Origin: a virus | Virus record (IMG/VR): IMGVR_UViG_3300029206_000002 | Direction: 5' to 3' (one strand) | DNA length: 64,000 nt | Part shown: in pieces, positions 20,125 to 35,740 of the stretch | Layout: every line of letters begins with the position of its first letter | How positions within the stretch are numbered: position 1 is the stretch's first letter | Made by a program: the position numbers and the translations under genes | The notes under the pieces: model-generated | Databases searched by the model: none | Seen by the model: only the letters and a program-made list of their open reading frames with translations | Told to the model about the DNA's origin: nothing

Positions 20125-20225
20125 ATATACTTGATTTTAATAATTTGACAATTAGTTAATTACATAGTATATTAGAAAGTCTACCTGTGTAGTTAATAGA
20201 CCGATCAAAGTCTAATAACTTAAAA

Positions 20226-20253
20226 TATCAGCTATCTTCACAGACCGCTGATA
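20226..20253 (-). promoter_or_regulatory. conserved-loop hairpin, copy 1 (loop TATCTTCACAGAC)
   Basis: TATCAGC-tatcttcacagacc-GCTGATA, followed on the minus strand by ATTTTAAG. Confidence 0.5.
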
Positions 20254-20393
20254 TGAATAACAATAAAATTAAGAAATAAGACAGACAAGATCAAAGAGTT
20301 AGCGCCTCTGTCACATCTCGATACGGCATCCGATTCTTCTTCTCTCGGCTTTCCAACACTTAGTTACCTTAGTAACATTATCAGAGGCAAGTA

Positions 20394-20496
20394 AGTAAGA
20401 GTATATACGAACCCAACCAAATGTATATACTCTTACTGATTTTATGTTGATTTTCAATTATTTTCTACTCAATACGAACCCAACCAAATGTATATA
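20394..20496 (-). repeat. two copies of a 25-nt element ATACGAACCCAACCAAATGTATATA; copy 1 sits in a 15-bp-stem hairpin
   Basis: Copies at 20405-20429 and 20472-20496. Copy 1 forms stem 20394-20408/20423-20437 with loop GAACCCAACCAAAT. Confidence 0.55.
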
Positions 20497-20501
20497 TTCG
20501 A

Positions 20502-21041
20502 TTATAAATCTCCTTCAACATGTAAACTGACAGGTATTCTTTCATACCCAAAATCTATGCAAGCATTTGCTACCCCAACCATTTTGCGTCGCTTGCTGTT
20601 GTTACCCATATTTTTATCAAAGCCTGGGTCATCTTTTGTAATATCATAGGTCAATTTCAATGGACTGTTTTCATCAAGTAATGTACAGTAATACAATAAT
20701 AACTCGATTACTTTTTCTTTTTCATCTTTCTTAAGTACTTTATCAATTGCTTCTGTCAGAAACCCAACCAAACCTGACTTATCACAATTGTTACTTTCTA
20801 CACCTGTGATGATAAAAGCTATTCTTTGTACTAAACTAAAAAAGTCTATTACATAATAGGAATTAAACCACTTATTTACCCAACCATATTTGTGGCGTCC
20901 TATTAATACTGTTCCATCATATCCAACTTTAATTGTTTTGCTCCCATCCATTAGCAAATTATTTTGAATACGAGGATCAGACATAATTAGCTGTAACATC
21001 TGCAAGTGATATGAATCTATTGGCTTTTTATTTGTTGCCAT
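20502..21041 (-). CDS. hypothetical protein
   Basis: 179-aa ORF. Confidence 0.5.
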   Translation of the reverse strand: MATNKKPIDSYHLQMLQLIMSDPRIQNNLLMDGSKTIKVGYDGTVLIGRHKYGWVNKWFNSYYVIDFFSLVQRIAFIITGVESNNCDKSGLVGFLTEAIDKVLKKDEKEKVIELLLYYCTLLDENSPLKLTYDITKDDPGFDKNMGNNSKRRKMVGVANACIDFGYERIPVSLHVEGDL

Positions 21042-21063
21042 AGCTTTATGTACTTAAGATTAA

Positions 21064-21642
21064 TTACTCGTCAATGCTCTTGTAGTAAGCAGTAGTGTCG
21101 TCCTTAGTAATCTTATTGATTTGTTCCAGAGAAGCTCCCTGATTTGCCAATTCATCAATAAAATTGTTAAGATCAGTCAAATTACTCTGATTCAACTGAG
21201 TGACAACTTCTGTTACCATCTTAACATTCCAGAACGGAGACCGTTCTCCAGTTGCTTCAAACTTCAAGATAGCATCTTGAACATCTTTCGGACCAGCTTT
21301 CAATACGATATCTACATCTGCCCGTAAATCAAACTGCAACTTTTCGTCATTATTAAACATAATAACAATCTTACCATTTGCAGTCCGCACGATATCTACG
21401 TTGAACAAATCAACAGTTTCAATCATATACTTCTTCATCGGATTTGCAAGTACAAGACCCGGCATATCACCAGCTAGTTTCTTCTTGTAATTCAAATCCA
21501 AATAATCACTTACGGGGATTGCCAACCGCCGACCAACTAAAGCACGGCTAAACGCAATTACTTTAGTACGTAACTGAGTAATTTCTTGCTGAGTAAAACC
21601 TTCTGGATTTTTGAACACGCTTTCATATTTTGTTGTTTCCAT
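21064..21642 (-). CDS. hypothetical protein
   Basis: 192-aa ORF, with AGGAG 8 nt upstream of the ATG. Confidence 0.5.
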   Translation of the reverse strand: METTKYESVFKNPEGFTQQEITQLRTKVIAFSRALVGRRLAIPVSDYLDLNYKKKLAGDMPGLVLANPMKKYMIETVDLFNVDIVRTANGKIVIMFNNDEKLQFDLRADVDIVLKAGPKDVQDAILKFEATGERSPFWNVKMVTEVVTQLNQSNLTDLNNFIDELANQGASLEQINKITKDDTTAYYKSIDE

Positions 21643-21649
21643 AATTTCT

Positions 21650-23795
21650 CCTTTCTTGATTCCGTGGTTGATTCCACCTATGGAGTAAGTTAATACTAAG
21701 TTAATTTAAAAAGTAAGCTATAGAGTTCTTTTATCTAAGTGGAATAGCATCTAATATCTATTCGTTTATTAAAAACTTAAAAACCACTTCTTGTATTCAA
21801 ACAGTAAAACTCTATAACGAAATTCTGCTAAGATTTGATAAGTAATCTGAAAAACTATAAGATAAGCTTTCGTATTATTAACATTACTACTAGAACGTGA
21901 TGTTATTACTTCACTCGGCATTCCCCGTAGGACTTTACTCATGAGACAGATGAGTCAGCCGTTCTTCATAAAATTATCAATACTAAACTATGAAAAGATA
22001 TGTAATTCGACATCTGAAAATCGAATGCTATGCTAGTTAATACCTAAAAAGGTACAACGGGACTCCAACGGTAGGAGATTTATACCCATCAAATAACATT
22101 ATAACTGAAATTATCTGAAAATCGAATGCTATGCTAGTTTCTGATTGTTTAAAGAGCCTAACAGTAACTATAACGTGCTCTTTTTCCTGTTATAGTAAGG
22201 AGTACTGTATATGGTTCATAACCTACAACTGTTACTTCACTATCGGTAATACTTCTACCGAATTTTATTTTGAGCTGTTTATGTTTCAAAACACCCACTC
22301 TATAGCCTAATAGTTTATTCTAAGGCTGCGTGTACTTACGACTTTGTTCTTATTCTGCACATAACTTTAGGATTTCCACCTATCATCCTTTAATGTAAGG
22401 AATCAGCGTCACTTTACATATATTGTTGCGCAATATACTTTAAATGTTTCAAATGTCAGCAATTATATTGTACAGTCGAGGGTGGCTCGGATTTACTTTC
22501 GTCTTCTTATCACTACTCGTCCTAAAACCTACCATTGAACTTCCTCATTAGTTAAATTAAACATGTTTATTCTCTCGTGAATAGAGACTTCCTAAATAGA
22601 TTTACATTCTGTCACTTCCCGTTAAGACTACTATTTAGTGCAATGCACAGATTTTTCTCCGGTCTGCTTCGTGTCCGTCTCTTAATGTGTCTGCTTCTCT
22701 TCAACCTAGGAGTAGGGCGATGCTCACTTTCACATATACTCTTAAGGATAGAGTATCGCACCTTGTGCAAATTTGATAAAACTCCAGTTATGCTTCTGGA
22801 TAAAATTATTTAGTACTTCTAAGCTTTATGTCTTCCGCTTAGTATTGAAATAGTGTTATTGCGCACTTCATCCGCTAGTTATCTTTATGTTCCTGTTGCA
22901 AAGCACTCTAGGTTTATACTCAGATAAGATAACAACTGAGTTTATTATAATACTACTTGAATTCACATACTCCTTATTTCCTAAAGAGGTCCGTTGCAGG
23001 ATTCCTTATTTATTAATATCGGATCATTGCTACTCAGCCAATAGGCACACAATCTACTACTCACTTTGTCACTCTATCCCTCTATACTGGAGTGTATAGT
23101 AATACAAGCTTAGGATTAGCTATGTACTGATTAACATAACATTGTGCATAGGCTTTACGCCTAATCCAGGTAATCTATCAATATTTTTTCAATAAGTAGT
23201 GCTATAATATTATAATTAAGTACCTTCATATATACTATCTCTAAACTTATTAAGTTACAATATAACTGTTTAGATAAGTATAGAACACTATACTGACATT
23301 TTTATATAGTCTATGCTATAAAGGGGAGTTTGGAGCTACCCTAGAGCGTTATATGCTCGATAATGTTCAGCACGTAGTCTTGGACACTACGATTTGTTGG
23401 GCATCATCGTGTTTATTACTCCTTCTTGATTCAAACTATGATAAGTCTGCGAGTAACTTAAGAGGATTTCGTTCCCCTTGTACTGTTTAATTTTGTAGAC
23501 TGCTCTCTACTAATTGCGTCTTCTGTTTCTGTCTCCAGTCGGTTCTCACCAAAAACAAGAGGGTTGTACACGCTCTCCCTCTATCTTATTGCCTCTTCAG
23601 TTTATAGATAGTATATAAACACAATAAGTTATTATACTTTCAGTAATAGCCTATAGTTGTAGCTATACTCTATTCCTACTAATATTCTGTACTATCTTAA
23701 TTTTAAGAAAGCAATCTAACCATTTACTTTCTAATCCTTTGATTTAGATATCTCTGGATATACACCATTATAGCTCTATAATCGCATTGGCTGTT
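21650..23795. other. 2.1-kb ORF-free region with shifted base composition (candidate structured RNA/origin region)
   Basis: Standard translation gives no ORF above 80 aa on either strand. The plus strand is pyrimidine-rich here, unlike the flanks, and the region contains long direct repeats. Confidence 0.4.
22012..22139. repeat. 27-nt perfect direct repeat ATCTGAAAATCGAATGCTATGCTAGTT x2
   Basis: Copies at 22012-22038 and 22113-22139, 101 nt apart. Confidence 0.7.
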
Positions 23796-24194
23796 CTAGT
23801 TGCGACTCAGATTTATCTTCTCTGATTGTTGTTGTTTCAGTCTTTGGAGAATATCCGTACAAGTGGTTTTATTCTCTTTAACTGATGGCAGTTCTCTTAC
23901 CTTAATGTATTTAGGTACTTCCTTCTCTACAACAGAAGTTAGATAGATGATACTGTCTTTCTTTTTGATTTCAACATTGATATTTTGTTCTGGGTTGCTT
24001 TGTCCATTTAATTTTATAGCGTTATTGTTCAAATTAATATCAATATTAAAGTCTTTTGTCCGAGGTACATCTGTGAACTTCGGAATCACATACTCGTGTG
24101 CGGTGGCGGTATTTGTATAGTTAGTTACAAATCCTACATATCCACCGAAAGCTAGCATTGCTAGCGTAAACAAAACTGTTGGTTTTTTACTCAT
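23796..24194 (-). CDS. hypothetical secreted/membrane-anchored protein (terminates with TAG)
   Basis: N-terminal hydrophobic segment MSKKPTVLFTLAMLAFGGYVGFV; stop codon is TAG. Confidence 0.5.
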   Translation of the reverse strand: MSKKPTVLFTLAMLAFGGYVGFVTNYTNTATAHEYVIPKFTDVPRTKDFNIDINLNNNAIKLNGQSNPEQNINVEIKKKDSIIYLTSVVEKEVPKYIKVRELPSVKENKTTCTDILQRLKQQQSEKINLSRN

Positions 24195-24213
24195 TTTGAT
24201 AATGCGTTAGTTG

Positions 24214-25929
24214 TTACTTTTTAGTAGCATACGCAGATTTCTCAATATAGAAAGTAAGAGGATTCAAAGAGGTTGATGTGTACAAGCTAGATACTTTCTG
24301 CATTACTTGTTTCAACATCTTGTCATTCATTTCTGCTCCATAAGCAATCCGCAGATTGTTTACAGTCTTTATTGCTGAAATGTGTTTACCTTTAAGATTC
24401 AGACCCTTGATTTCTGGATATACAAGTTTGTCTTCATCTTTACCTTCGTTATTAGCAGAAGTAATAATACGATTGATCAGATCGTCATTAGTTCCACTAA
24501 TTAATTGAGAATACCGTTTTGCTTCTTCTTCGTAGTTATTGTTTTTTGCAGTTTCATCAGCAATCTTCTTAGCTAAGAATACTTTCACAACATTAGCAAC
24601 TTGCGCATCGTTGTATGTTGTTAATTGATTCTTAAGCCAAGCATGAGATGCTAAAACTGACAAATTACCAGTTAAATTACCCCAAATAGCATTCGCACAA
24701 CCTTCAAGCAATGTAGCGTTTCGTCCTGCTTCCTTCATCTTAAGTAATACAGTTGCTAATACTTGTGCTGGTTCTGCATCTTTGTCAAGTTTATAGGCTT
24801 CCCGTGCAAATTCAATCATATTTGCTACGTTCTTACCTATACCTCCTGACTTCTGCTTGTGTCGCATGTTCATAATAGTACACATTGCTGCTACTTTCTG
24901 TTCATCTGTGACACATTCTTCAGGTTTTGGCATTTCCTGAGTCTGCGGAACTTTAGCATCTTGTTCTAAAGCTTTTTGCATTTCAGGATTTGTCTTTGCG
25001 ACAGCATCTTTGAAGTTAATCTCGAGCTGTCCATCAGATGTTTTGCTAGGAAGCAAATTAACACCGAGGAACAAAGAAGCTGTTTCATTCAAATATGCAA
25101 ACATTTCTTCGTTCACAGTAAAACCTTGTTCTTTTGCATCATTCTTGAACTGGTCATTCCATTTCTGAATTAATACAAACATCATAAGGTCTGCCTGTTT
25201 TCCTGTTGCTTGATACATTGCCCGATCATCTTTAATCTCTTCACGGCGTTTCAGAATTGCGTTCATCAAATCTACTGAGTGATTTGCATCAATTCTGTCA
25301 CTGTTCTGAGTTACAATGTTGGGCGCAGGAGCTGCGGCTGTTTTAATAGTAGGAGTATTGTTGATGTCAATTTCTTCAGCTTCTACTTCTTCTATCTTCT
25401 CCTTCTTCGACTTCTGCTGTTTAGGTTTCTTTTCAGTAGATGCGGGTTTAGGATCTTCCTTCTTTGGTTCTTCAACTGGTTTAGTTTCAGGAACTTTAGC
25501 AGGAATAGGATTCTTAATTCCTTCCTTAATCCGTTTAACGTCAATTCCGTCTCCCTTCTTTACATTAGATACTGGGAAGAGGACACTAGTAGTTTCACTA
25601 GTTTCGTTGTTCTTCCACTCGGCTTTGATATTTTCAATGCCTTTACTGTCTTTCTCAATCTTAAGAGAAAGTAGACTCATATACGGTGATTTTGTGCACA
25701 ACATATGAGTTTCATATGCTGATTTACCCATTGGAGTCTGATAAACGCCGCCTTTCTTTCGTTCAGCTGGTTTCTCTTCAGGCTTCTTTTCTTCTGGTTT
25801 AGAATCTTCTACTTTTGTTGTTTCTACTTTAGCTGAAGCTTCTACTGCTTCTTTAGCTTTTTTCAAAGCTTCTAAGTTTCTTGCTGCTTTTGCACTTGGA
25901 GTCTTTCCACCTTTATTTCTTTTTGCCAT
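24214..25929 (-). CDS. hypothetical protein with Lys/Glu/Pro-rich low-complexity N-terminal region
   Basis: 571-aa ORF. Confidence 0.5.
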   Translation of the reverse strand: MAKRNKGGKTPSAKAARNLEALKKAKEAVEASAKVETTKVEDSKPEEKKPEEKPAERKKGGVYQTPMGKSAYETHMLCTKSPYMSLLSLKIEKDSKGIENIKAEWKNNETSETTSVLFPVSNVKKGDGIDVKRIKEGIKNPIPAKVPETKPVEEPKKEDPKPASTEKKPKQQKSKKEKIEEVEAEEIDINNTPTIKTAAAPAPNIVTQNSDRIDANHSVDLMNAILKRREEIKDDRAMYQATGKQADLMMFVLIQKWNDQFKNDAKEQGFTVNEEMFAYLNETASLFLGVNLLPSKTSDGQLEINFKDAVAKTNPEMQKALEQDAKVPQTQEMPKPEECVTDEQKVAAMCTIMNMRHKQKSGGIGKNVANMIEFAREAYKLDKDAEPAQVLATVLLKMKEAGRNATLLEGCANAIWGNLTGNLSVLASHAWLKNQLTTYNDAQVANVVKVFLAKKIADETAKNNNYEEEAKRYSQLISGTNDDLINRIITSANNEGKDEDKLVYPEIKGLNLKGKHISAIKTVNNLRIAYGAEMNDKMLKQVMQKVSSLYTSTSLNPLTFYIEKSAYATKK

Positions 25930-25997
25930 ATTGATTATGTTTTAAATAAATTAATAACTTAACAATTAATACACTCAAATTATGAAATTAAGTGCAG

Positions 25998-26348
25998 TCA
26001 ACTGTCATCTTCTATCTCTGCATTGTTAGGCATGGTAGGTATATCTTCTCTATCGGTTGTTACTAACGTCTCACCTCCGTCTTCCTGACCCATTTCATAA
26101 GATTGGTTATCTACTGTCCCTACAAAAGCAGTAGAACCTTGAGATGTGGGATTAGGAGCCATAGTAACAACTAACTCTTGAGAAGGAGTATCTGAGGTAT
26201 TTGCAACTACCTTTTTTACTCCAGTACCTACAACAAAGCCTAGTAAAAGTACGCATACTAAGAATACGTACAAACTAGCACTTTTACACATTCTAGAAAT
26301 GATAAAAGATGCTAATGCTCCTAAAAGGAGTAAACAAAAACTAGTCAT
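25998..26348 (-). CDS. hypothetical membrane protein
   Basis: Two hydrophobic helices. Confidence 0.45.
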   Translation of the reverse strand: MTSFCLLLLGALASFIISRMCKSASLYVFLVCVLLLGFVVGTGVKKVVANTSDTPSQELVVTMAPNPTSQGSTAFVGTVDNQSYEMGQEDGGETLVTTDREDIPTMPNNAEIEDDS

Positions 26349-26365
26349 ATTGTTGAAAGTATTTG

Positions 26366-26911
26366 TTAATAATCTGTTTTCTGTTTAAGTTTTTGTCTTG
26401 CTTTGTTTAAATCACCTTTTACAGCTAATTCATTCATTGCAAGCTTACTGGCTATCTCTTTATAAGACATACCATCTATACGAGCATTAATTAAATCTCT
26501 ATATTTCTTCTTAAGAGTAGGTATAGCTTGTAAGACTATATCTAATTTTTCCTTTAGAATTAAATCTTCTTCAGGACTTCTCTCTAAAGCAGATAGTTGA
26601 ATTGGATTTTCATCCTCATCAACATAGTTATTTAATTGCTCTTTTTTGTTTCTACGTATATAGTCTATTGATGCATTAACAGCAATAGTCTTTAACCACA
26701 TATTAAATGAAATATGTTGAGTATACATAGATAATTTCTCATAAGCTTTAGTAAATACTACTGATGTTAAATCATCAGCAACATCTGTATTCTTAACTAC
26801 ACCCATAATAGTGTACCAAATATCAGTTTTATACTTATAGTATAACTTACTAAATGCTTTTTGAGAACCTTGTTTAGCTTGCTCCACTAGATCTATTATT
26901 TCTTGTGTCAT
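26366..26911 (-). CDS. RNA polymerase sigma factor, ECF/sigma-70 family
   Basis: Region-2-like AFSKLYYKYKTDIWYTIMGVV...FTKAYEKL and region-4 HTH GMSYKEIASKLAMNELAVKGDLNKARQKLK. Confidence 0.6.
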   Translation of the reverse strand: MTQEIIDLVEQAKQGSQKAFSKLYYKYKTDIWYTIMGVVKNTDVADDLTSVVFTKAYEKLSMYTQHISFNMWLKTIAVNASIDYIRRNKKEQLNNYVDEDENPIQLSALERSPEEDLILKEKLDIVLQAIPTLKKKYRDLINARIDGMSYKEIASKLAMNELAVKGDLNKARQKLKQKTDY

Positions 26912-26963
26912 ATAGCTAAATTTTAGTGGATTGTAGTTAACCCAATAACTACAATCCTTAAAT

Positions 26964-27410
26964 TCAGAAGGGAAGTTTTATAATTTCTTTGCAATAATAA
27001 TTATTTACTGCTAGACATCTTTTATAGAATACATCTGAGATATGTTCTCTCCATTCTTCTTTCTCTTCTTCATTGAGAGGATATGCCATTTTCAATGACA
27101 TATTAATAGCAATCCTTACTCTTACTAATCTTGTTTGAAGACTTAATATTTTATCTTCTAATAGATTATTAAGAATATCCATCCATAGTCTTCTATTTAT
27201 CCACTTATTGATACTTAGACAAGTGTTACTAGTAACTATCTTAGATTTTAAATCAGGTGGTATATTTGCCCAATCATCTAATACACTATCTGCATATCCT
27301 AATACTTTAGTATCAAAATTAGCAGAAGATACAATCTTGTCTAAAGTAAACCTATAAGGTTCCTCTAATTCAGCATTGAGTGCTTCAATAAGTCTCTTAA
27401 AATCGCTCAT
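26964..27410 (-). CDS. hypothetical protein
   Basis: 148-aa ORF. Confidence 0.45.
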   Translation of the reverse strand: MSDFKRLIEALNAELEEPYRFTLDKIVSSANFDTKVLGYADSVLDDWANIPPDLKSKIVTSNTCLSINKWINRRLWMDILNNLLEDKILSLQTRLVRVRIAINMSLKMAYPLNEEEKEEWREHISDVFYKRCLAVNNYYCKEIIKLPF

Positions 27411-27868
27411 TATGGTTCTCTGTTAAGTGCTTTACAAATTACAGTAAATACATAGTTAGCTTGAGACATTTTCAGGCTGTATTTCTTCTTTAAATGCAGT
27501 CTAGTTCTTACTTTGGCTTGTTCTATACCATATAATGGTAAAGTTGACTTATAATAGGCAATACCTTCTTCGATGATTTTATCTTTTCTAGAATCTTCTC
27601 CTAAGCCCTCTAGAGTTTGTAAATCACCAATACCTACATTATCAACTACTTCAGTAATAGATGGTAATGCGAATGTATACTTTTCAGGATACATCATAAT
27701 ATCTACTACTTCAGGACTGTCTTTAGTAAGATCTTTAGCTTTACCATTCTGTTTAAAGTAATTAAGATCAATTGCACCTACTACTTCTAATAATGGTTCT
27801 ACTCCGCTTAAAAGGAGTAATACATTAGTTTCTGGACCTTGTGCGATCCACATACCTGCTTTTAACAT
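27410..27868 (-). CDS. hypothetical protein
   Basis: 152-aa ORF. Confidence 0.45.
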   Translation of the reverse strand: MLKAGMWIAQGPETNVLLLLSGVEPLLEVVGAIDLNYFKQNGKAKDLTKDSPEVVDIMMYPEKYTFALPSITEVVDNVGIGDLQTLEGLGEDSRKDKIIEEGIAYYKSTLPLYGIEQAKVRTRLHLKKKYSLKMSQANYVFTVICKALNREP

Positions 27869-28065
27869 AATCCTTTTGTTTTAAGTATTTTGATAAATTC
27901 GTTTTTGAATCTTTTTACTACAACTGCTGCATCCATTGGACTAATGTTGAATTCAGAGGCTACTTTTTTTCTAAATTCCATTTCTCCACTGCATTGCTGC
28001 ATTACTTCTTGTAGTCTTTCTCGCTCTCCTGGTTCAGTCCAGCGAACATATTGAACAATTTCCAT
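27862..28065 (-). CDS. hypothetical small protein
   Basis: 67-aa ORF. Confidence 0.35.
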   Translation of the reverse strand: MEIVQYVRWTEPGERERLQEVMQQCSGEMEFRKKVASEFNISPMDAAVVVKRFKNEFIKILKTKGLC

Positions 28066-28066
28066 G

Positions 28067-28396
28067 TTAATTCATTTGATGTTCAAGATCTTTAATTTTA
28101 TTATAGACGCCTACCCAATATATCAAGCCTTCTTTACTCTTTTCAGCTTGAAACATTTCATAGATTTTGCATCTATTGTATCCGACTGTAATGTTATGTA
28201 CACCACGTCGCCAACCTCTACCTCCCTTCATTACTGATGGAGTTGATTCATATACATACTCAATGAACGCAGTAAGTTTACGTTCTCTTGTAAGAACAAT
28301 TTCCCAAGTCTTGGGCAATTTATTCCTAATAAAACCTCTTAAGCCTTTTTTATTCATGTTTATATTTAAATATTTTTGAATTATTTCCAAATTCAA
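28067..28396 (-). CDS. hypothetical protein
   Basis: 109-aa ORF. Confidence 0.4.
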   Translation of the reverse strand: MNLEIIQKYLNINMNKKGLRGFIRNKLPKTWEIVLTRERKLTAFIEYVYESTPSVMKGGRGWRRGVHNITVGYNRCKIYEMFQAEKSKEGLIYWVGVYNKIKDLEHQMN

Positions 28397-28691
28397 ATCT
28401 AATTGTATAGATCATATTTTTAATAGTTGCTTCATGAAGTGTTATTCTGATTTTACTCATAAAGCGATCAAGATAATACCTAGTATTAATATACCATGCA
28501 ACTATCTCATAATAGTCTCTTTCATCATTAACACTAATACTCGCTTTTGCATAATAATCATGTGTACTACATGCTAATATATCTTCACTTATTGCTAGTA
28601 ATCTATAAAGCTTTTTTTGTATAAAGTCTAAGATTTCTGCTTGAGTATTGAATCCTTTTTCTTTACTCTTTTTATGCCGACCACGATTCAT
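28350..28691 (-). CDS. hypothetical protein
   Basis: 113-aa ORF. Confidence 0.4.
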   Translation of the reverse strand: MNRGRHKKSKEKGFNTQAEILDFIQKKLYRLLAISEDILACSTHDYYAKASISVNDERDYYEIVAWYINTRYYLDRFMSKIRITLHEATIKNMIYTIRFEFGNNSKIFKYKHE

Positions 28692-28875
28692 AAGTAGTTT
28701 CTTTAATTGAAGATCTAAGTCTTTCTATAGCTGCCAACAGTGTATCTATTCTTATTACTACTTCTGTGTCTCTAACAAAATGTTTAATATGTTTCAGATT
28801 AGTAATCATACCAGCTAAAAGCATAAGAGATAGGTTTCTTCTACTTGCCTTTAATTGATTTAAAGTCTTTTTCAT
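28672..28875 (-). CDS. hypothetical small protein
   Basis: 67-aa ORF whose ATG overlaps the upstream TGA as ATGA. Confidence 0.4.
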   Translation of the reverse strand: MKKTLNQLKASRRNLSLMLLAGMITNLKHIKHFVRDTEVVIRIDTLLAAIERLRSSIKETTYESWSA

Positions 28876-29186
28876 CTACAAAATGTTTTTAAGTATTGTT
28901 CATAATATCTTTTTTCATTTATTGAAGCTAAAGCATCTAATTGATTATAATTCTTTTTAGTTAAAGTAAAATCATAATCTAATAATGCTTCTTTTAGACT
29001 GTAAAATACATTATAATCAAACAAATCTCTGTTGCTTATTTTGATTTGTTCAATGAGAGCTGTTTCAAATATAGCTAGTAATCTTAGAATATATTTATTA
29101 TTCTTTTTGACTGCTAGTCATAAACCTTTATCTCCTTTATTATAATCTAAAGGAATAATTGATACCTTGTTATAATCTATTCTCAT
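28872..29186 (-). pseudogene. 104-codon gene with one in-frame TGA (codon 23): readthrough/recoded gene or nonsense-disrupted gene
   Basis: ATG at 29186-29184 overlaps the upstream stop as ATGA. The same frame is open to TGA at 28874-28872, which overlaps the next ATG as ATGA. The only interruption is TGA at 29120-29118. Absent from the ORF track. Confidence 0.45.
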
Positions 29187-29734
29187 ACTCTAAAGTTTGT
29201 TTTATAATACTTTTTAATAATTCTTATAGCTTCATCAAATTCTTCTTTATTATCAAAAACATTACAAAAGGTGTAGCCATTCTTGTTTAAGAATATAGGA
29301 TGAAAATAAGCTACAAAGAATGTTTTAAATAATCTACTCTTTTTAATAGGAATTAAATTATCTAAAGTAATATCACTAGTTATACTTACTGTCCAAGCAA
29401 TATTTAGTTCAGGATCTATTTTATAGATTACTCCATAGTGTGCACTTGGACCTATTTTCGCTCTAATGATGTCATATTTTTGTAAAGGTATTTGATCTAT
29501 ACCTTGACCTAATATTTCTGTAGGTAAAACTATATTCTGTTTAGGAACACATGAAGATTGTTCAATTAAACTAGTAGATAAAGATGAACTAAATGCATCT
29601 ACTATACTTATTACATCTAATATTTTATTATCATCTGTATTTTTTAATTTAGAAGATGCTTTAGATCTTACAGAGTTTAAAAAGTTCTCTTTTTCTTCGA
29701 CAGATTTTTCTTTTAATAAATCTAATATGCTCAT
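29183..29734 (-). CDS. hypothetical protein
   Basis: 183-aa ORF. Confidence 0.5.
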   Translation of the reverse strand: MSILDLLKEKSVEEKENFLNSVRSKASSKLKNTDDNKILDVISIVDAFSSSLSTSLIEQSSCVPKQNIVLPTEILGQGIDQIPLQKYDIIRAKIGPSAHYGVIYKIDPELNIAWTVSITSDITLDNLIPIKKSRLFKTFFVAYFHPIFLNKNGYTFCNVFDNKEEFDEAIRIIKKYYKTNFRV

Positions 29735-29762
29735 ACTTTTTGTTTTTAATTTTGATAATTTG

Positions 29763-29836
29763 TAATACTAATAGGACTCGAACCTATAACTCAACCTTAT
29801 CAGTGTTGTGATGTTACCCGTTACATCCATAGTATT
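29763..29836 (-). tRNA. tRNA-Ile (anticodon GAU)
   Basis: Folded by hand: acceptor AATACTA/TAGTATT, D-arm GATG-taacgggtaa-CATC, anticodon arm CAACA-ctGATaa-GGTTG, T-arm ATAGG-TTCGAGT-CCTAT, discriminator A; 74 nt. Confidence 0.65.
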
Positions 29837-30056
29837 TCTTAACCAGCTTTTTACGACATTAGCTTAGCCGTTGACTTATCATATCACGCTGCAATATGAG
29901 TATAGTCTGTTACAAAAGATTTGTCATTTCTGACGTTATTGACCTATTCATTACTGTTTCTGCCAATCAATACATACATACCCCCTTGTTATTATTCTAT
30001 AGTGGAGGTAGAGTCGGCGAAGACTCGTCTTGCTCAGGCATATAATGACCTAACAG

Positions 30057-30443
30057 TCAATATACTTTTATTTCTATAGGATTATCTCCAAAACACATAT
30101 TTCTTTTATCAAATGGTACATAATGAGTATATAAGAATCCTGCATCATTAAATAGTTTAGCCGTACCTATTGGTACACTAATAGAATTATTATGTTTTGG
30201 ATCTATCCACCAACTTCTTTTTGTTGTTTCATGAACATATCTAACAGGTTTATTATAGAATAGATGTTCACCCCACATATCTGCTGCAATATAGCTCATG
30301 ATAAATAATTTTAAGTTGTAAATATAAAGAGTTTTGCACACCTCTGCGCCTTCATATCCTAGCAGACCGGATAACGCCTCAATTAGAGAGATATACATCA
30401 TACACGAGTTTTCATATATCATTGGGTTGATATAATAGTGCAA
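30057..30443 (-). CDS. hypothetical protein
   Basis: 128-aa ORF. Confidence 0.45.
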   Translation of the reverse strand: MHYYINPMIYENSCMMYISLIEALSGLLGYEGAEVCKTLYIYNLKLFIMSYIAADMWGEHLFYNKPVRYVHETTKRSWWIDPKHNNSISVPIGTAKLFNDAGFLYTHYVPFDKRNMCFGDNPIEIKVY

Positions 30444-30479
30444 TATACTCTTTTAGTAGTATAGAGAGTGATCAAACTC

Positions 30480-30965
30480 TCTATACTTGATATGTAATCC
30501 TAAAGTAATAGTATATACTGTTGATTATGAGCATAAAAGCATTAAATCTAGTATATAATAGCATAAAGCTGCTATTACTTTAGAATTTATAGTCTTTGAC
30601 AGAATACATATTATACCAAGTGCTCATCTAGCAAGCTAGAGACTCGATTGAAATATAGACATAAAAGTACTATATGTATATGTATTTTGATATACTTACT
30701 GTTTTTCGTCTATAAGACTATTCTTCAGGATTCTCCCCGAGAATCATTACCCTTGGAGCATAAAGCATACGGGGTGAAGAAACGATCTACTATAGCACAT
30801 GATCAGTAGGCATGTATTCCTATTATTAGCATAAAAGCATTAAATAGAACTGTCAATTCAGTTCGATCTACCCGAACTCCTTAATGCGACAATACGACTT
30901 ATATAGTTTGCGGTTAGACTTTTATTCTATTTTAGCATAAAAGCATTTAGAATACGGATGTTGAT
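30480..30965. repeat. intergenic region with 3 copies of TTAGCATAAAAGCATT(A/T)A and shorter AGCATAAAGC variants
   Basis: Copies at 30530-30547, 30828-30845 and 30933-30950; variants near 30561 and 30757. Confidence 0.55.
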
Positions 30966-31414
30966 TAAAGATAGATATTTTCGTATCTTGAACCAAAGAC
31001 TTCTTCTTTCGCTTTTGCGATAGCGTCATCTTTCTTGTCTGTAAGTTCTGAATACTTTTTGTCCCAAGCTTTGTAATCACCTGTAGATTCAAATTCAGCT
31101 TGAGCTTTCTTCAGTCCTTCAGAAAAGTCTTTCATAATGTTCTTGTGTTTTGATGCAAAACGTCCGTATCTTTCTGCTCTAGAAACAGCTTTTTCACAAT
31201 CCTGAATTCTACGTTTTACTTCACGAGATTCACGTTCAAGTTGTTCTTGTTGGATCTGTTTCTTTGCTTCAGTAACTGCTGATGCTTCAACTTTACCGTC
31301 TTTTTCTTCTTGTTTTTTCATACCAGCTTCAAAGTTGTAATTTTCATCAGTTGCTTTGTCACGTAACATTGCTACACCTAACATAATTGCAGTTAATTTC
31401 ATAAAATTCTTCAT
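30965..31414 (-). CDS. hypothetical secreted coiled-coil protein
   Basis: N-terminal signal-like MKNFMKLTAIMLGVAML followed by a charged helical region. Confidence 0.45.
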   Translation of the reverse strand: MKNFMKLTAIMLGVAMLRDKATDENYNFEAGMKKQEEKDGKVEASAVTEAKKQIQQEQLERESREVKRRIQDCEKAVSRAERYGRFASKHKNIMKDFSEGLKKAQAEFESTGDYKAWDKKYSELTDKKDDAIAKAKEEVFGSRYENIYL

Positions 31415-31925
31415 AATTTTTTGATTTTTAATTGTTAATAATTGATTTATTTAAGTGAATGAATTAATCTTAAAAAGTATCTAATAAGCTTCTGCGATAG
31501 ATTTCATCTCTTTCTTCTTTGATATCTATTTGCATTTTAATGATAATACTTATTAGTTCTTCTTTTGTTTTCTTTTTTAATTCTTTTTTTGTCCACATAA
31601 TAGTAAAGAAATAGAAAGTTATACTATCTATTCGTACGCCTTATTCGATAGCTAGCCCTTTTCCTTCTCCTGACCTTAAATAAGGTTGACCGTTGTATAG
31701 TCCGTAGGTATTAATCACCTTTAGGGGTCTGGCGTTATAACCTTCTGTGTTGATTGGATTCTATCATAACTACTTAATTAGTAATTCTTAGTTAAACAAT
31801 AGCTCTTTCCCTTTTATACGGTTGCATTTTAGAATGTCTAACTCTCTTTTTAGACTGATATTCAGCTGCTTTTCCTGATTGCTTAGAACCTGGAAAATGA
31901 GATTCTTTATAGGTCTTTCCCATGA

Positions 31926-32315
31926 TTATAACACTCTAATTGCTTGTACTAAAAGGTCAAAGATATAAGCGCATCCCTTTTTGTTGAGATACTCGATTGT
32001 AACTTCTTTTTCATCCAGCATCATCTCAATTTGTGGTCTAGTTAACTTACCATCTTCAATTAATTTCCAAAAATTGGCATTAATTGCAGCGATATTCATT
32101 AGACCAGCTGCTGTACACACAGTAATAACATCTTTCAAGATGTTTTCAATCATTTGTTTATTTGAAGAACTAGTTACAAATTTACTTGTTTCAAGTATTT
32201 CTGTATGTACTTCTGATAAACCAAGTTTTTTAGCCATAAGAGCTACTGCTGTTACAACACTTTCCTGATTAATTGATGCAGGAATTCCAATAATTACAAA
32301 GTTTAAAGATTTCAT
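31926..32315 (-). CDS. hypothetical protein
   Basis: 129-aa ORF. Confidence 0.45.
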   Translation of the reverse strand: MKSLNFVIIGIPASINQESVVTAVALMAKKLGLSEVHTEILETSKFVTSSSNKQMIENILKDVITVCTAAGLMNIAAINANFWKLIEDGKLTRPQIEMMLDEKEVTIEYLNKKGCAYIFDLLVQAIRVL

Positions 32316-32326
32316 TTGATATGAAT

Positions 32327-32596
32327 TTAAAGTTGTTTATAAATTTCTTGGCTATAGTACTTACCGCATCTTTCACAGTAAGTTCTTTTAGTAATAGGAA
32401 TGTTTAATTCATTGTTATTAGGCTCATTTTTCCATTTGTGCCCATGAATTAAACATTGTGAACGTAATGCAACTTCTTTTTGCTTTTTAGGATTGTCTAA
32501 TAATTCTAATTCAGCAAGTCGTTTAATGTTACTATGATAGGCTTTTAGCCTTCTGTAACTACTGATTTTCAGTTTGATTTTCTTAAAAATATTCAT
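32327..32596 (-). CDS. hypothetical zinc-ribbon protein
   Basis: CLIHGH...CERCGKYY. Confidence 0.4.
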   Translation of the reverse strand: MNIFKKIKLKISSYRRLKAYHSNIKRLAELELLDNPKKQKEVALRSQCLIHGHKWKNEPNNNELNIPITKRTYCERCGKYYSQEIYKQL

Positions 32597-33019
32597 TCTT
32601 TCATATTTAATAGTTTTAATTATACAATATTTTGAGGACGTCTAGCTGCAACTAGATGGTTTTATCAATCTTAATTATATATTAACACACAATTTTTACT
32701 GTACGCTTACAGTAAATAAAGAAGGTATGTAACAATTTATACAATATATTGCAGTATATTGCAGGCTTGACGATTCACATCGTTGTGTAACTTCTACACT
32801 AATACAGCTTAATTGAAATACTAATTAAAATGACTCTCACTTAGTTTTAACTCATAAGCAGATATAGCTGTCAAACTAATCTTATTGGAGTACATGGTTT
32901 TAACGTCTGCACTAATACTAATCTCCTCCACCTACCTTCAGACGACAGTAATACTGCCCTCTAAAATGATTAGATATAAGCCCCACATGTTTGTCACTGA
33001 TTCTCACAGTAAAGACGGC

Positions 33020-33045
33020 TACTTCTATCTTCACAGACTAAAGTA
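33020..33045 (-). promoter_or_regulatory. conserved-loop hairpin, copy 2 (loop TATCTTCACAGAC)
   Basis: TACTT-ctatcttcacagacta-AAGTA, 17 nt downstream of the stop of gene 33062..33484 (minus). Confidence 0.45.
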
Positions 33046-33061
33046 ACCTTCTCTTTTTACT

Positions 33062-33484
33062 CTAATAATTAATGGCTTGGTGAATTGTATCACTATTAAT
33101 TTGTGGTAATGAGGACCTTGGCATACTATCTGGTATATATTCTTTTTGTATATCCATACTCCTCTTTATTAATTTATCATAAAAGTCTTTATTACTAATA
33201 TAAATAGAAACAATTTCATGATTTGATAAATCTGTACCTTTAGTAACAAGTATTTGAGTTAGTACTTGTTCTGGCATAACCAAGAATACACTATCTACAT
33301 ACTTGTCTAATCTCATATTTTCACGCCATTGTAGCACTTCTTGTACTGTTGGTGCTACTACTTGTTCAATTGTGTCCGTTTCAGGGATTTGTTTTTCTTT
33401 AGGACTACGAGGTCTTGCACAACTGATAAAAATTGCTAATGCTACTATTGCTGCAATTAGCCAAAATACGTATTTACTTTTCAT
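33062..33484 (-). CDS. putative lipoprotein
   Basis: N-terminus MKSKYVFWLIAAIVALAIFISCA (signal peptide plus lipobox-like ISC). Confidence 0.45.
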   Translation of the reverse strand: MKSKYVFWLIAAIVALAIFISCARPRSPKEKQIPETDTIEQVVAPTVQEVLQWRENMRLDKYVDSVFLVMPEQVLTQILVTKGTDLSNHEIVSIYISNKDFYDKLIKRSMDIQKEYIPDSMPRSSLPQINSDTIHQAINY

Positions 33485-33617
33485 TTTTGATAAATGTTTT
33501 TAAGTTAACACTAAGTATATAAATGCTATCAATATTGCATCTATTACAATTAATACTCTTGTTACTGGATGTGTTTCATACCAGTTTTCAAATTTATCCC
33601 ACCATATGTCTGCTAAA

Positions 33618-33875
33618 TCAGCTTGGTTTGATTTCTTTGTATCCATCGTCTTTATCTTTATATCCACTACCAAGTGTATATACAAAAGATAATACGCAGA
33701 ATATAAATAGTGCGATTATCACTACTTTAGAGTAATACCAATAATTCCAGTAATCGGTATATAACAGTCCGTACACTTCTTCATCAAAGAAATATATTCC
33801 TTGATGTTCAATAATCATCACAGCTGCAAATAATGCAGTTATGAGTCCAAATAAAAAATACATTAACTTTTGCAT
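33618..33875 (-). CDS. small membrane protein with two predicted TM helices
   Basis: 85-aa ORF that overlaps ORF 33500..33685 in another frame. Confidence 0.4.
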   Translation of the reverse strand: MQKLMYFLFGLITALFAAVMIIEHQGIYFFDEEVYGLLYTDYWNYWYYSKVVIIALFIFCVLSFVYTLGSGYKDKDDGYKEIKPS

Positions 33876-33953
33876 AATAATTATTTATTGATTAAATACT
33901 ATTTGCTACAAATACTATTGTTACTACTATTGCTAATAATATTAGTAAGTATA

Positions 33954-34271
33954 CTAATAATCTGATAGTAATAACAATGCGCCAGAATCGTTCATTTCCC
34001 ATATACTTTTATACTTATTGTTGAGTTTTTGCCAAAAATGATGTCCTTCTTTTGTATGTCTCCATATAAGTGTACATTCAATTGCCATACTAGGAACTCT
34101 TAATTTTGTATAAAATGGTTCTAGGTTTATTTTTTTATCGTGAGCATATTTACTACTGCCGTCTAAAAAGCTATCTAATACTTTTTCTTTAATAAGAAAC
34201 GTAAGCAATAAATAAGGCATATTAAATAATATTTGCCTTCTGACTTTTTGTTGTTCTGTTAACTTTTTCAT
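33954..34271 (-). CDS. hypothetical protein
   Basis: 105-aa ORF. Confidence 0.4.
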   Translation of the reverse strand: MKKLTEQQKVRRQILFNMPYLLLTFLIKEKVLDSFLDGSSKYAHDKKINLEPFYTKLRVPSMAIECTLIWRHTKEGHHFWQKLNNKYKSIWEMNDSGALLLLSDY

Positions 34272-34570
34272 TGATTGAATTGTACTTTTTTATGAACTTT
34301 AAATGTTACTTCAGTATCACTTTTAACTTCAATGGTAAAATGAGGAGATGATTTACTATCTATTCTTCGTTTGATCCATTTAACTACGTAATCCGCAGTT
34401 AATACTTCAAATTGCAAATAGCTACGCCATTTTCCACTCTTACCGATGTGTAGTTTTAGATTTCCTCTGTCAATATTAGTAACAGGGTTAACGCGACTTT
34501 GTTTTGAGTTAACTAATTTAGCTACTACTATGTCGCCGATTTTAAGATTCTGAAATTGTTCTAATGTCAT
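34268..34570 (-). CDS. hypothetical protein
   Basis: 100-aa ORF with ATGA overlap. Confidence 0.4.
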   Translation of the reverse strand: MTLEQFQNLKIGDIVVAKLVNSKQSRVNPVTNIDRGNLKLHIGKSGKWRSYLQFEVLTADYVVKWIKRRIDSKSSPHFTIEVKSDTEVTFKVHKKVQFNQ

Positions 34571-35057
34571 TTGATAAAGTTTTAAGTTTATTGTTTAAAT
34601 TTTCAATAGTTCCTAATAAATCTTTTAGTATATGTTTACTCTTCTGTAACTCTATAAGATCCTTTCTATGAATAATGACAAATTCTTCTTTTAGTGCTTC
34701 TTCAATTGTAACTGAAGTGTTAGTTGTACTTCTATTTATTGACTCAAGTTTTTTGTTTTCAGGTTTAATTGATATATCATGTTCAAAGGTTTTGTCATTA
34801 ATTTGACAAGTAAACGATACGTCAGAAAGTGCTATTTTTAGTTTCTTAAACATATCTTCTTCTGTATATTTATCAGGAAAGTCTAGTTCAAAATCTATGG
34901 CTCTAAAGTAAACTAGTTCTGCTATGTATGCAATATCTAGCAGGTTATTAGTTTCTTGCATAGGTATGCTAAAATACCTATTCATATATTTTATGATTTT
35001 GTTTCTTTCTTCTTTTGTGTTCTTAATTGCAAAAGATATTGTTACTAATTGTTGCAT
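34542..35057 (-). CDS. hypothetical protein
   Basis: 171-aa ORF. Confidence 0.45.
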   Translation of the reverse strand: MQQLVTISFAIKNTKEERNKIIKYMNRYFSIPMQETNNLLDIAYIAELVYFRAIDFELDFPDKYTEEDMFKKLKIALSDVSFTCQINDKTFEHDISIKPENKKLESINRSTTNTSVTIEEALKEEFVIIHRKDLIELQKSKHILKDLLGTIENLNNKLKTLSNDIRTISES

Positions 35058-35398
35058 ATACTTTAGTTTATTGATTAAACATATAAAGAGGACAGCTAAC
35101 GCTGTCCCCTACTATTTACGTATAGTTACGTTGTCATTCTTTGTTCATCTAATGACAGATGCTCAGAACTATTTTTCAAATCTAAAATAGTGAAAACTCC
35201 TTCATACTGAGTTTAGATAGTGCTTACAATAATCGTACCACACACTACGATGATACTAATACTACATGTAGTTGGCTCTGCATTTACAGGCTTGCCACTG
35301 TCTATGGCTGCATTACTATTGTAGTATAAATAACTCTAAGTTAGTTTGAATACATCTTGCTAAGAGTTCGTACTTTCTGATAAAGTGTTTTCTTGTTT

Positions 35399-35674
35399 TC
35401 ATAATGTTGATTTTAATGGAAATTTGTTTTTATTATGTTTTATATACTTTAAAACATTCAAATAATTATTAGCATTTAAGAAACAAAGCTTACACATAGA
35501 TATATCTGCACAAGGCTTATAATAAGCGCAACTACTTCTATTATCATGTGCTCTTATAGCACATAAATTTGTAAGTTCAAGTTTGCTTATTTCTTTATAA
35601 GCTTTCTTAGACTTTAATACTACTCCACTTTGTATTATATTGTCTATCATTACTGGTTTAATTAATTTAGTCAT
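35399..35674 (-). CDS. hypothetical Cys-rich small protein
   Basis: CAIRAH...CAYYKPCADISMCKLC. Confidence 0.4.
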   Translation of the reverse strand: MTKLIKPVMIDNIIQSGVVLKSKKAYKEISKLELTNLCAIRAHDNRSSCAYYKPCADISMCKLCFLNANNYLNVLKYIKHNKNKFPLKSTL

Positions 35675-35712
35675 TTCATTTTATCTTAATTTAAGTTAAT
35701 AATCAGTTTAAA

Positions 35713-35740
35713 ACACTACTATCTTCACAGACTGTAGTGT
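35713..35740 (-). promoter_or_regulatory. conserved-loop hairpin, copy 3 (loop TATCTTCACAGAC)
   Basis: ACACTAC-tatcttcacagact-GTAGTGT, about 40 nt upstream of the start of gene 35399..35674. Confidence 0.5.

Follow-up and report, generated by a model that had tools for sequence, protein, structure and literature searches.

What places the same 13 nucleotides in three hairpins whose stems are unrelated in sequence? The question is raised by a window of 64,000 nucleotides from a crAss-like phage with about 96% identity to cr6_1. In it the motif TATCTTCACAGAC on the plus strand, which reads GTCTGTGAAGATA on the minus strand, occurs as three exact copies (20233-20245, 33026-33038 and 35720-35732), compared with none in 100 dinucleotide-preserving shuffles. 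A sequence-only reading had described one 13-mer flanked by unrelated complementary arms, and this description holds. It had also drawn the 13-mer as an open loop, which must be revised: a hairpin was the minimum-energy structure for all three copies in RNA folding, and within it the 13-mer forms a 4-bp inner helix (GUCU/AGAU), a GUGA tetraloop and an unpaired 3' A. The arms pair as proposed, although the stems are slightly longer than first described, at 8, 9 and 7 bp for copies 1 to 3.

Copy 1 (20225-20254, minus strand) has an 8-bp outer stem, AUAUCAGC/GCUGAUAU, and an unpaired 5' G below an apex of inner helix GUCU/AGAU, tetraloop GUGA and 3' unpaired A. It scored 44.4 bits (E 7e-11) with the covariance model and folds with -14.2 kcal/mol (z -3.7). 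ORF 20502-21041 ends about 245 nt before it, and the ATG of ORF 19630-20124 comes about 100 nt after it; UUUAAG (20224-20219) is directly 3' of the stem. Copy 3 (35713-35740, minus strand) places the identical apex on a 7-bp outer stem, ACACUAC/GUAGUGU, with an unpaired 5' A (43.5 bits; -11.8 kcal/mol). It is followed directly by UUUAAAC (35712-35706) and lies 38 nt ahead of the ATG of ORF 35399-35674 and about 250 nt downstream of a RAGATH-14 RNA (35989-36219). Both copies are kept in cr6_1, and both consist of a hairpin and then only a short UUU(U)A, with four U when the last U of the stem is included. Neither was listed by a generic terminator scan, whose loop limit of 3-8 excludes the architecture of these hairpins.

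Copy 2 (33017-33048, minus strand) again has the same apex, here on a 9-bp outer stem that includes a U·G pair, GGUUACUUU/GAAGUAGCC, with an unpaired 5' A (34.4 bits; -19.8 kcal/mol, z -5.6). Its stem pairs are changed in the orthologues in cr6_1 and in two further contigs (L078 and L117). Measured from the extended stem or from the one first proposed, its start lies about 14-17 nt past the stop of ORF 33062-33484. No U-tract is present; a Hatchet self-cleaving ribozyme (32892-33016, minus strand; Rfam RF02678, 102.2 bits against a gathering score of 51) follows directly. No Hatchet or other Rfam ribozyme was found directly 3' of copies 1 and 3. The T-rich tract that had been described after every copy is thus confined to copies 1 and 3, where it is short, while the distances to neighbouring genes were read correctly: copy 2 begins about 16-17 nt beyond the stop codon of ORF 33062-33484, and copy 3 precedes the ATG at 35674 by about 38 nt. 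Pfam searches of the flanking ORFs were uninformative; one ECF-type sigma factor is encoded elsewhere in the window.

The covariance-model search that had been proposed as a check gave no further copy in the window above background (filters off; next best 13 bits), and an architecture scan of the window returned five weak matches against 2.5 expected. The three window hairpins are instances of an RNA module widespread in Bacteroidales and their phages. It is composed of an outer stem of variable sequence, a 1x1 internal loop in which a variable 5' nucleotide lies opposite a conserved 3' A, a 4-bp inner helix, most often GUCU/AGAU, whose first pair is a G·U wobble, and a GYGA tetraloop, represented in the window by GUGA, which is of the GNRA type. 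The outer stem is 7-9 bp long, a range found in 86 of the 111 distinct phage copies.

Across 58 distinct copies, 99.5% of the cells at paired positions were paired, and each of six outer-stem pairs was represented by five to six pair types. The covariation score was 0.83; shuffles gave 0.17, and slid partners no more than 0.17. Compensatory changes are not limited to the outer helix, as the inner helix also occurs in the covarying variants GUUU/AAAU, GUAU/AUAU, GCCU/AGGU, GUCC/GGAU, GUUC/GAAU and GCUU/AAGU. Some variants have an isosteric A·C in place of the G·U, and the tetraloop is GNGA or GUAA in every case. The suggestion of a genuine family, conserved at the apex and covarying in structure, is borne out by well over 100 hairpins that carry the module on different stems. 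The apex itself is A/U-rich, includes the G·U pair and contributes only -1.3 kcal/mol when folded alone. The inner-helix G·U and many U·G closing pairs are possible in the sense strand only, so the structure of the module is strand-specific, in agreement with the claim that the element acts on the transcribed minus strand of the window. The copies run in the direction of transcription, and their orientation was always that of the neighbouring tRNAs and ribozymes.

More than 100 module copies with different stems were found in gut phage contigs and more than 100 in Bacteroidales genomes. The same 13-mer occurs on unrelated stems in Prevotella, Bacteroides, Parabacteroides, Dysgonomonas and crAss-like phages, with a single copy in crAss001, a phage of Bacteroides intestinalis. 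This crAss001 hairpin lies at 1877-1910, 7 nt ahead of tRNA-Glu. The module is common to crAss-like phages and Bacteroidales chromosomes and is not specific to the phage of the window or to its relatives. The motif-seeded scans demanded an exact 13-14-mer and the genome scan demanded TTTT as well, so that the dominance of the consensus and the frequency of U-tracts in hosts are biased upward. About 95% of the copies are intergenic: 5% of the phage copies lie inside ORFs of at least 100 aa compared with 57% of random positions, and the corresponding values for bacterial copies are 4% and 68%. At the bacterial loci the nearest upstream ORF of at least 100 aa on the same strand is often distant (median 182 nt). 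From reading of the translations, chromosomal copies in Bacteroidales trail genes resembling SufS, a PfkB kinase, a TonB-dependent receptor and Wzc.

What follows the module falls into a few kinds. A T-rich tail lies directly 3' of the stem in 55 of the 111 distinct phage copies, compared with 9.7% in the control, and nearly all host copies, from a genome scan that required TTTT, have canonical U-tracts. Of the copies that have no U-tract, most are followed after 2-11 nt by the 5' end of a tRNA or by a self-cleaving ribozyme. A tRNA 5' end was located 2-11 nt downstream of 17 copies, where about 0.1 would be expected (128 tRNAs in 0.94 Mb). Other copies precede tRNA-like sequences that were not called by ARAGORN. 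In four loci (L046, L019, L024 and L050) a full U-tract is present only 7-11 nt before a tRNA; these tRNAs need read-through, so termination cannot be efficient at every copy. A Hatchet follows the module in the window and in three other contigs (L078, L017 and L070), and a hammerhead ribozyme follows it in two (L085 and L095). The link to termination or processing first suggested for the three hairpins is thus supported by U-tracts, tRNA 5' ends or ribozyme cleavage sites just downstream; nothing was found in support of an operator, which had been offered as a further option.

In Bacteroidales the module also forms the terminator hairpin of FopS small RNAs (Rfam RF04319), which in Parabacteroides, Phocaeicola and Bacteroides reads GGCU-GUCUGUGAAGAU-AGCC and is followed by a U-run. 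FopS RNAs end at hairpins of this kind (RbpB preprint; Rfam matches), which gives indirect support to transcript 3' ends at the U-tracts. All RF04319 matches were in bacterial loci, and an Rfam scan of the window gave no match to FopS, with its conserved single-stranded 5' seed and terminator. The FopS Rfam consensus differs in its apex, ggcugcc-GUGAA-ggcagcc, and the window copies are without the FopS 5' seed region. RbpB as the reader of the hairpin is not supported, since its published binding to FopS is at the single-stranded 5' part and not at the hairpin (RbpB preprint).

The adjacent Hatchet has copy 2 as its P0 hairpin: copy 2 ends at 33017 and the Hatchet match starts at 33016, a placement found for this copy only. 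P0 has been described as a hairpin that precedes the cleavage site, is separated from P1 by a few nucleotides, is dispensable for catalysis in vitro (PMC4604424) and has no sequence conservation (Weinberg et al., 2015; Li et al., 2015, PMC4604424). In a sample of 56 distinct hatchets collected independently, by seeding on the hatchet core and not on the module motif, the module was present as P0 in 37. When the conserved UC ahead of P1 is aligned with C(-1)/U1 of Ht-1 (PMC4604424), the cleavage site of the window Hatchet would fall between C33014 and U33013. An upstream RNA cleaved there would end in the copy 2 hairpin plus GUC with a 2',3'-cyclic phosphate. Within the window, the likeness to P0 is limited to this copy, a hairpin a few nucleotides 5' of P1 and the cleavage site. 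The module differs from P0 as described in having a defined apex and in occurring without a Hatchet at terminators and before tRNAs, and copies 1 and 3 have no downstream ribozyme.

Taken together, the module is probably a hairpin that becomes the 3' terminus of the RNA upstream of it, either through termination or through cleavage, and whose apex is read by a factor. It would act in the transcript, at an RNA 3' end with a tail of a few nucleotides, and two routes could lead there. Where a U-tract follows, as at copies 1 and 3, most host copies and the FopS terminators, the end would be formed by intrinsic termination. Where none follows, the end would be formed by cleavage a few nucleotides downstream, which fits copy 2 with its Hatchet, RNase P acting at the 5' ends of tRNAs, and the other ribozymes. 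With a hairpin at its 3' terminus, the upstream RNA would be shielded from 3' exonucleases in vivo and insulated from structured RNA downstream. Against this reading stand the short U-tracts of copies 1 and 3, the full U-tracts just ahead of some tRNAs, the often distant upstream ORFs at bacterial loci and the published binding site of RbpB outside the hairpin. The strong conservation of an apex with such weak stability suggests that it is read by a host component, which might be an RNA-binding protein or RNase, or RNA polymerase/NusA; recognition by a protein is plausible. More tentatively, the apex may be a tag by which a putative RNA-binding protein or ribonuclease of Bacteroidales, active on the 3' ends of RNAs and co-opted by phages, recognises its targets.

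Several of these observations would also be expected of an ordinary intrinsic terminator, in which the apex would be a fast-folding nucleation unit favoured by the Bacteroidales RNA polymerase, no trans-acting factor would be needed, and copies beside tRNAs or ribozymes would simply end the preceding unit and abut the next gene by chance. GNRA tetraloops are common in terminators, and the canonical U-tracts, carried by half of the copies in phages and by nearly all of those in hosts, agree with such a role, as does the module in FopS terminators. We nevertheless consider this explanation unlikely, as roughly half of the phage copies keep the exact apex where there is no U-tract, and both the spacing of 2-11 nt to tRNAs and the juxtaposition with Hatchet P1 are too regular for accident. 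Moreover, terminators a few nucleotides ahead of tRNAs would silence those tRNAs, and a weak, A/U-rich apex with a G·U pair is unlike the product of selection for stability alone.

The tight gap to tRNA 5' ends, the position of P0 a few nucleotides from Hatchet P1 and the narrow range of outer-stem lengths could instead indicate an element that helps in cis, insulating the downstream tRNA or ribozyme or guiding its folding or cleavage, for example as a landmark from whose tetraloop RNase P or another endonuclease would measure a fixed distance. This appears rather improbable given that Hatchet cleavage in vitro does not need P0 (PMC4604424) and that half of the copies, and nearly all of those in hosts, are followed by a U-tract only and then by a gene or nothing structured. 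Furthermore, most phage tRNAs have no such hairpin; crAss001 has one copy against 23 annotated tRNAs in the region.

An element acting as DNA, whether an N4-type hairpin promoter, a replication or recombination site or a mobile repeat, is very improbable. A conserved centre within an inverted repeat is a usual feature of DNA sites, crAss-like phages have unusual RNA polymerases (crAss001 annotation), and the tRNAs and ribozymes that begin just downstream give a promoter-like picture; however, the obligatory G·U pairs would become C·A mismatches on the opposite strand, the module with canonical U-tracts is present after chromosomal genes and small RNAs in hosts that have no phage polymerase, and the ribozyme would serve no purpose if the Hatchet transcript began at the very site where it cleaves. 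In an N4 promoter the DNA hairpin has a stem of 5-7 bp and a loop of 3 nt and is used by the virion RNA polymerase upstream of early genes. Such a promoter was rejected on its different geometry (the module has a 4-bp inner helix and a tetraloop), the strand-specific G·U and the occurrence of the module at host gene ends. The complete difference of the stems between copies argues against a transposed repeat, and a dispersed REP- or MITE-like repeat was ruled out on the same unrelated arms. A sigma-70 or ECF promoter was dismissed because the variable 3' arm cannot hold a conserved -10 and the element is present in hosts that do not have the phage sigma factor, and a K-turn or K-loop, sarcin-ricin motif, box C/D, tRNA-arm mimic and CRISPR-repeat mimic were rejected by inspection since a GA/AG tandem, AGUA/GAA or repeat-like conserved stems are absent.

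Among known systems, intrinsic terminators resemble the module as stem-loops with U-tracts at the ends of genes and small RNAs, but they are defined by shape whereas the module is defined by its conserved apex, and a U-tract is missing from half of its phage copies. Phage T4 has intercistronic C(UUCG)G hairpins, reportedly described by Tuerk and colleagues in 1988, which are likewise abundant near gene ends and conserved in sequence; T4 conserves only an ultra-stable 6-nt loop, in contrast to the weak 13-nt apex found here. The TRIT hairpins of Mycobacterium tuberculosis are also abundant, sequence-conserved and close to gene ends (RNIE paper, PMC3152330), but it is their stem sequence that is conserved, while in the module the stem is free and the weakly stable 13-nt apex is kept. 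The conservation of TRIT and T4 hairpins has raised the idea of an extra factor or special stability; the module differs from both in being common to hosts and phages and in being coupled to cleavage sites. Lambda boxB, with its GNRA-like loop, and the MS2 and PP7 operators, with a bulged A, are small hairpins in which this loop or this A contacts a protein while the stem is free, but they serve as an antitermination site or at a translational start and are present as a single copy per genome. No boxA-like partner or cognate protein was found for the module, and this likeness is architectural only.

The module is apparently undescribed in Rfam and the literature. No Rfam 15 family overlapped the three window copies at the gathering score or at E values up to 10, and a phage region with three copies (L085, 1-420) gave weak overlaps below the gathering score, the clearest being a BTnc201 terminator (20.7 bits, E 0.28). 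A full-text literature search found the 13-mer in no paper, as RNA or as DNA string. The papers on Bacteroides transcriptomes, RbpB, RNIE and theta ribozymes and the survey of 224 motifs do not describe the module, and nothing on it was found in the literature on crAss with terminators or hatchets.

The finding joins, in one RNA module, elements so far regarded as separate: the Hatchet P0, the hairpins leading phage tRNAs and a subset of Bacteroidales gene and FopS terminators. For P0, so far without function, it offers a concrete hypothesis, namely that P0 caps the upstream cleavage fragment at its 3' end. The module can be annotated easily, and its covariance model could mark transcript boundaries in crAss-like phages. 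It is also a short, mutable bait for a 3'-end-binding factor in Bacteroidales, whose global RNA chaperones are poorly known, and cultured systems are at hand in crAss001 on Bacteroides intestinalis and in the Parabacteroides FopS genes that carry the module. The phylum to which Bacteroidales belong is not known to have Hfq or ProQ. If the proposed recognition is true, the apex-reading factor would be a functional counterpart of Hfq and ProQ binding to terminator hairpins, and crAss-like and other gut phages would attach this tag behind genes, ahead of tRNAs and, as P0, to hatchets, and leave the handling of their processed transcripts to the host factor.

The 13-mer that reads GTCTGTGAAGATA on the minus strand was found exactly three times in the window (exact matches at 20233-20245, 33026-33038 and 35720-35732, all minus strand), and was absent from all 100 dinucleotide-preserving shuffles of it. 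The sequence-only reading had described a single motif on unrelated stems, and this was borne out, as each copy is enclosed by complementary arms that differ between all three. It had also taken the 13-mer for an open hairpin loop, which it is not. In RNA sense the element runs outer stem, N, GUCU, GUGA, AGAU, A, outer stem; the supposed loop is therefore a 4-bp inner helix (G·U, U-A, C-G and U-A pairs) capped by a GNRA-type tetraloop, with a 1x1 internal loop between inner helix and outer stem. This GUCU/AGAU-GUGA architecture was both the MFE and the centroid structure in ViennaRNA for all three window copies and for that of the cultured phage crAss001, and the folds correct the hairpin spans to 20225-20254, 33017-33048 and 35713-35740 (copies 1, 2 and 3; minus strand). 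All genes between about 5.5 and 39 kb lie on the minus strand, so the motif stands in the sense of transcription, as had been proposed. A further hairpin at about 16985-17007 (minus strand), GGAAU-GUCU-GCAA-AGAU-U-AUUCC, has the inner helix of the module with a GCAA tetraloop and an outer stem of just 5 bp; it lies within an ORF (16479-18632) and does not exceed the background rate of the architecture scan.

The window region is about 96% identical to the uncultured crAss-like phage cr6_1 (NC_055894.1; Crassvirales, Suoliviridae, Afonbuvirus), where copy 2 shows altered stem pairs that remain paired. Rfam scans revealed a same-strand group of phage non-coding RNAs, namely RAGATH-7-assoc (30326-30453), RAGATH-9 (31612-31757), Hatchet (32892-33016) and RAGATH-14 (35989-36219), which together with a tRNA-Ile(GAU) (29762-29836) form a dense minus-strand run at 29762-36219, interspersed with small ORFs. 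None of these RNAs is annotated in the RefSeq record of cr6_1, and no Rfam family matched the hairpins in scans of the window copies and of a phage locus. Between ORFs 34542-35057 and 35399-35674, a stretch on the minus strand (35270-35319) matches type-P1 twister below threshold (28.1 bits, gathering score 67.2, E 0.02) and may be a twister that is degenerate or has diverged. Elsewhere, a suppressor tRNA with anticodon CUA (44256-44330, plus strand; called tRNA-Pyl by ARAGORN) and gaps in the ORF map, e.g. 21642-23796 and 45983-47762, suggest that the TAG stop codon is reassigned in part of this genome. A phage-encoded ECF-type sigma factor was recognized at 26366-26911 (minus strand; Sigma70_r2 E 2e-10, Sigma70_r4_2 E 5e-10), matching the cr6_1 annotation 'RNA polymerase sigma factor'.

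Two exact copies of ACATTTGGTTGGGTTCGTAT (20405-20424 and 20472-20491, minus strand), 67 nt apart, lie in the 245 nt that separate ORF 20502-21041 from hairpin copy 1; a perfect hairpin of 14 bp (GTAAGAGTATATAC...GTATATACTCTTAC) encloses the second. Around 60 related crAss-like contigs keep the pair at unchanged spacing, and the hairpin module follows within 300 nt in 60 of 61. Read within small ORFs, both copies would give the peptide YTFGWVRI, and a 16-mer of the repeat occurs in apparently coding sequence (FGWVRKKDGYRRF) of unrelated phages. The pair may represent a non-coding RNA, small ORFs or a gene remnant.

Scanning of viral contigs for GTCTGTGAAGATAG gave at least 120 loci. About 85% of the occurrences among the matches listed sit between inverted-repeat arms of 4-11 bp that pair perfectly or nearly so, keep a constant register and have a different sequence each time. 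Across 58 distinct aligned copies, 99.5% of cells were paired, a value inflated because copies were picked for at least six pairs; the diversity of pair types, five to six at each of six outer-stem pairs, is not inflated. The covariation score was 0.83, whereas shuffles gave 0.17 and slid partners no more than 0.17; this upholds the structural covariation proposed from the sequence, with an apex (the part above the outer stem) that is conserved. A covariance model built from the copies, a check of the kind suggested, recovered about 30 variant apexes in the same viral loci. All three window hairpins are also present in cr6_1. The variants include compensatory inner helices (GUUU/AAAU, GUAU/AUAU, GCCU/AGGU and GUCC/GGAU) and isosteric A·C in place of the basal G·U; the GNGA loop is retained, the 3' A mostly so, and the 5' N is unconstrained.

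The hairpins are intergenic as a rule: phage copies lie inside ORFs of at least 100 aa in 5% of cases against 57% of random positions, and bacterial copies in 4% against 68%. A T-rich tail directly 3' of the stem was found in 55 of 111 distinct phage copies, compared with 9.7% in the control, and most phage copies without it have a processed RNA within a few nt downstream. Seventeen tRNA 5' ends (ARAGORN) lie 2-11 nt downstream of phage copies, against an expectation of about 0.1 for 128 tRNAs in 0.94 Mb, and several more tRNA-like sequences, some with long insertions, follow other phage copies; the single crAss001 copy is 7 nt upstream of tRNA-Glu, within a tRNA array. Hatchet ribozymes follow the hairpin in the window and in three phage loci (L078, L017 and L070), and hammerhead ribozymes in two (L085 and L095). 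A T-rich tract had been reported after every window copy; it is present, though short, after copies 1 and 3, and copy 2 is followed by Hatchet instead. The proposed role as terminator or processing site stands in part, favoured by the tailed phage copies, the terminators of the small RNA FopS and the tRNA and ribozyme ends, and weakened by the short U-tracts of copies 1 and 3. A simple terminator whose nucleation loop is favoured would suit the tailed copies but leaves unexplained the regular distance to cleavage sites and the copies that lack a U-tract. Some U-tract copies are only 7-11 nt upstream of tRNAs, where read-through is required.

Some phage tRNA genes right after the hairpin are of unusual length, at 123-155 nt by Rfam, or escape ARAGORN while looking like class II tRNAs (GGTGGTATGGCGGAAT..AGACGC); such genes lie in L022 (3232-3354) and L071 (10477-10631), both on the minus strand, and also in L009, L008, L024 and L065, and may carry insertions or introns. 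Another recurrent sequence, ..CCATGGTTGGTNCTGTCTAAGG.., lies within a few nt after variant hairpins with the apex GUAU-GUGA-AUAU (L090 about 7520-7550, minus; L003 about 6909-6940, plus; L016 about 4654-4685, plus; L064 about 865-895, minus) and had no Rfam match at gathering score.

Copy 2 is the P0 hairpin of the Hatchet ribozyme, a hairpin described as lacking sequence conservation and dispensable for catalysis (Li et al., PMC4604424). In a motif-independent sample, obtained by searching viral contigs with the 3' core of Hatchet, GTGCAGACGTTAAAA, and inspecting the 5' flanks, P0 carries the module in 37 of 56 distinct hatchets (66%); thus P0 is frequently an instance of a broader module. 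The inner helix of these 37 begins with G and ends with U without exception, the tetraloop is GUGA apart from two GCGA and one GUAA, and the 3' A is usually there. The remaining 19 belong to another P1 subtype with unrelated P0 hairpins. Alignment to the Hatchet consensus predicts cleavage between C33014 and U33013, so that the mRNA of ORF 33062-33484 would carry the hairpin and GUC at its 3' end, with a cyclic phosphate. Two facts contradict the idea that the hairpin is a helper of the downstream RNA: P0 is dispensable, and many copies have nothing structured downstream.

The element is not phage-specific. A prokaryote scan (one genome per species; motif, 5-9 nt gap and TTTT) gave, among the matches listed, overwhelmingly Bacteroidales, type strains included (Prevotella, Bacteroides, Parabacteroides, Phocaeicola, Dysgonomonas, Muribaculaceae and Rikenellaceae), with perfect outer stems of 6-12 bp in about 100 of the 130 listed; motif-seeded scans favour the consensus apex, and this one U-tracts too. 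Non-Bacteroidota matches listed were mostly without a stem or were crAss contamination identical to window copies. Phage or mobile genes occur upstream alongside ordinary chromosomal ones that, judged by reading translations, resemble SufS, PfkB kinase, a TonB-dependent receptor and Wzc. Among host copies, the terminator hairpins of FopS (RF04319; 9 matches), a multicopy, RbpB-associated small-RNA family of Bacteroides, form a recurrent group. Only about eight additional copies were found in 0.69 Mb of 8-kb bacterial loci, which makes the module a minority type among host terminators. A phage copy in L085 (131-210, plus strand) weakly matches the terminator of the Bacteroides small RNA BTnc201 (RF04177; 20.7 bits, E 0.28), whose consensus loop guCUGGUGUGauag has the GUCUG....GAUAG frame in common with the module, and the middle hairpin of GibS (RF04182), GCUU-GUGA-UAAGU, is also module-like. 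A DNA-level site or hairpin promoter is contradicted by these host positions at the ends of genes and small RNAs and by the G·U pairs, which permit the structure in the sense strand only. A dispersed repeat was ruled out by the unrelated arms.

One reading would cover all contexts, namely that the hairpin serves to close the upstream RNA, standing at its 3' end with a short tail behind it. This end would be made by intrinsic termination at U-tracts and elsewhere by cleavage just downstream, through ribozyme self-cleavage or RNase P at the tRNA 5' end; the hairpin would then block 3' exonucleases and insulate adjoining structured RNAs. The apex by itself contributes only -1.3 kcal/mol (ViennaRNA) yet is nearly invariant on unrelated stems in hosts and phages alike, so selection for stability alone does not explain its conservation. 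Recognition by a putative host component is the most economical inference; the protein-recognised element proposed earlier is to this extent plausible, given the conservation, with the factor itself putative. As a separate observation, crAss001 encodes the TROVE-domain (Ro60-like) protein Gp96 (L243 46870-48288); members of this family bind structured RNAs as well as RNA 3' ends.

The closest known systems are Hatchet P0, intrinsic terminators including that of FopS, and TRIT of M. tuberculosis, a sequence-conserved terminator or stability hairpin. The C(UUCG)G hairpins of T4 are of a similar kind. None of these comprises a free stem with this defined apex, linked to cleavage sites and present in both Bacteroidales and their phages, and the module sequence was not found in full-text literature searches. 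The module gives Hatchet P0 a testable role and can serve as a bait for a putative RNA 3'-end factor in Bacteroidales.
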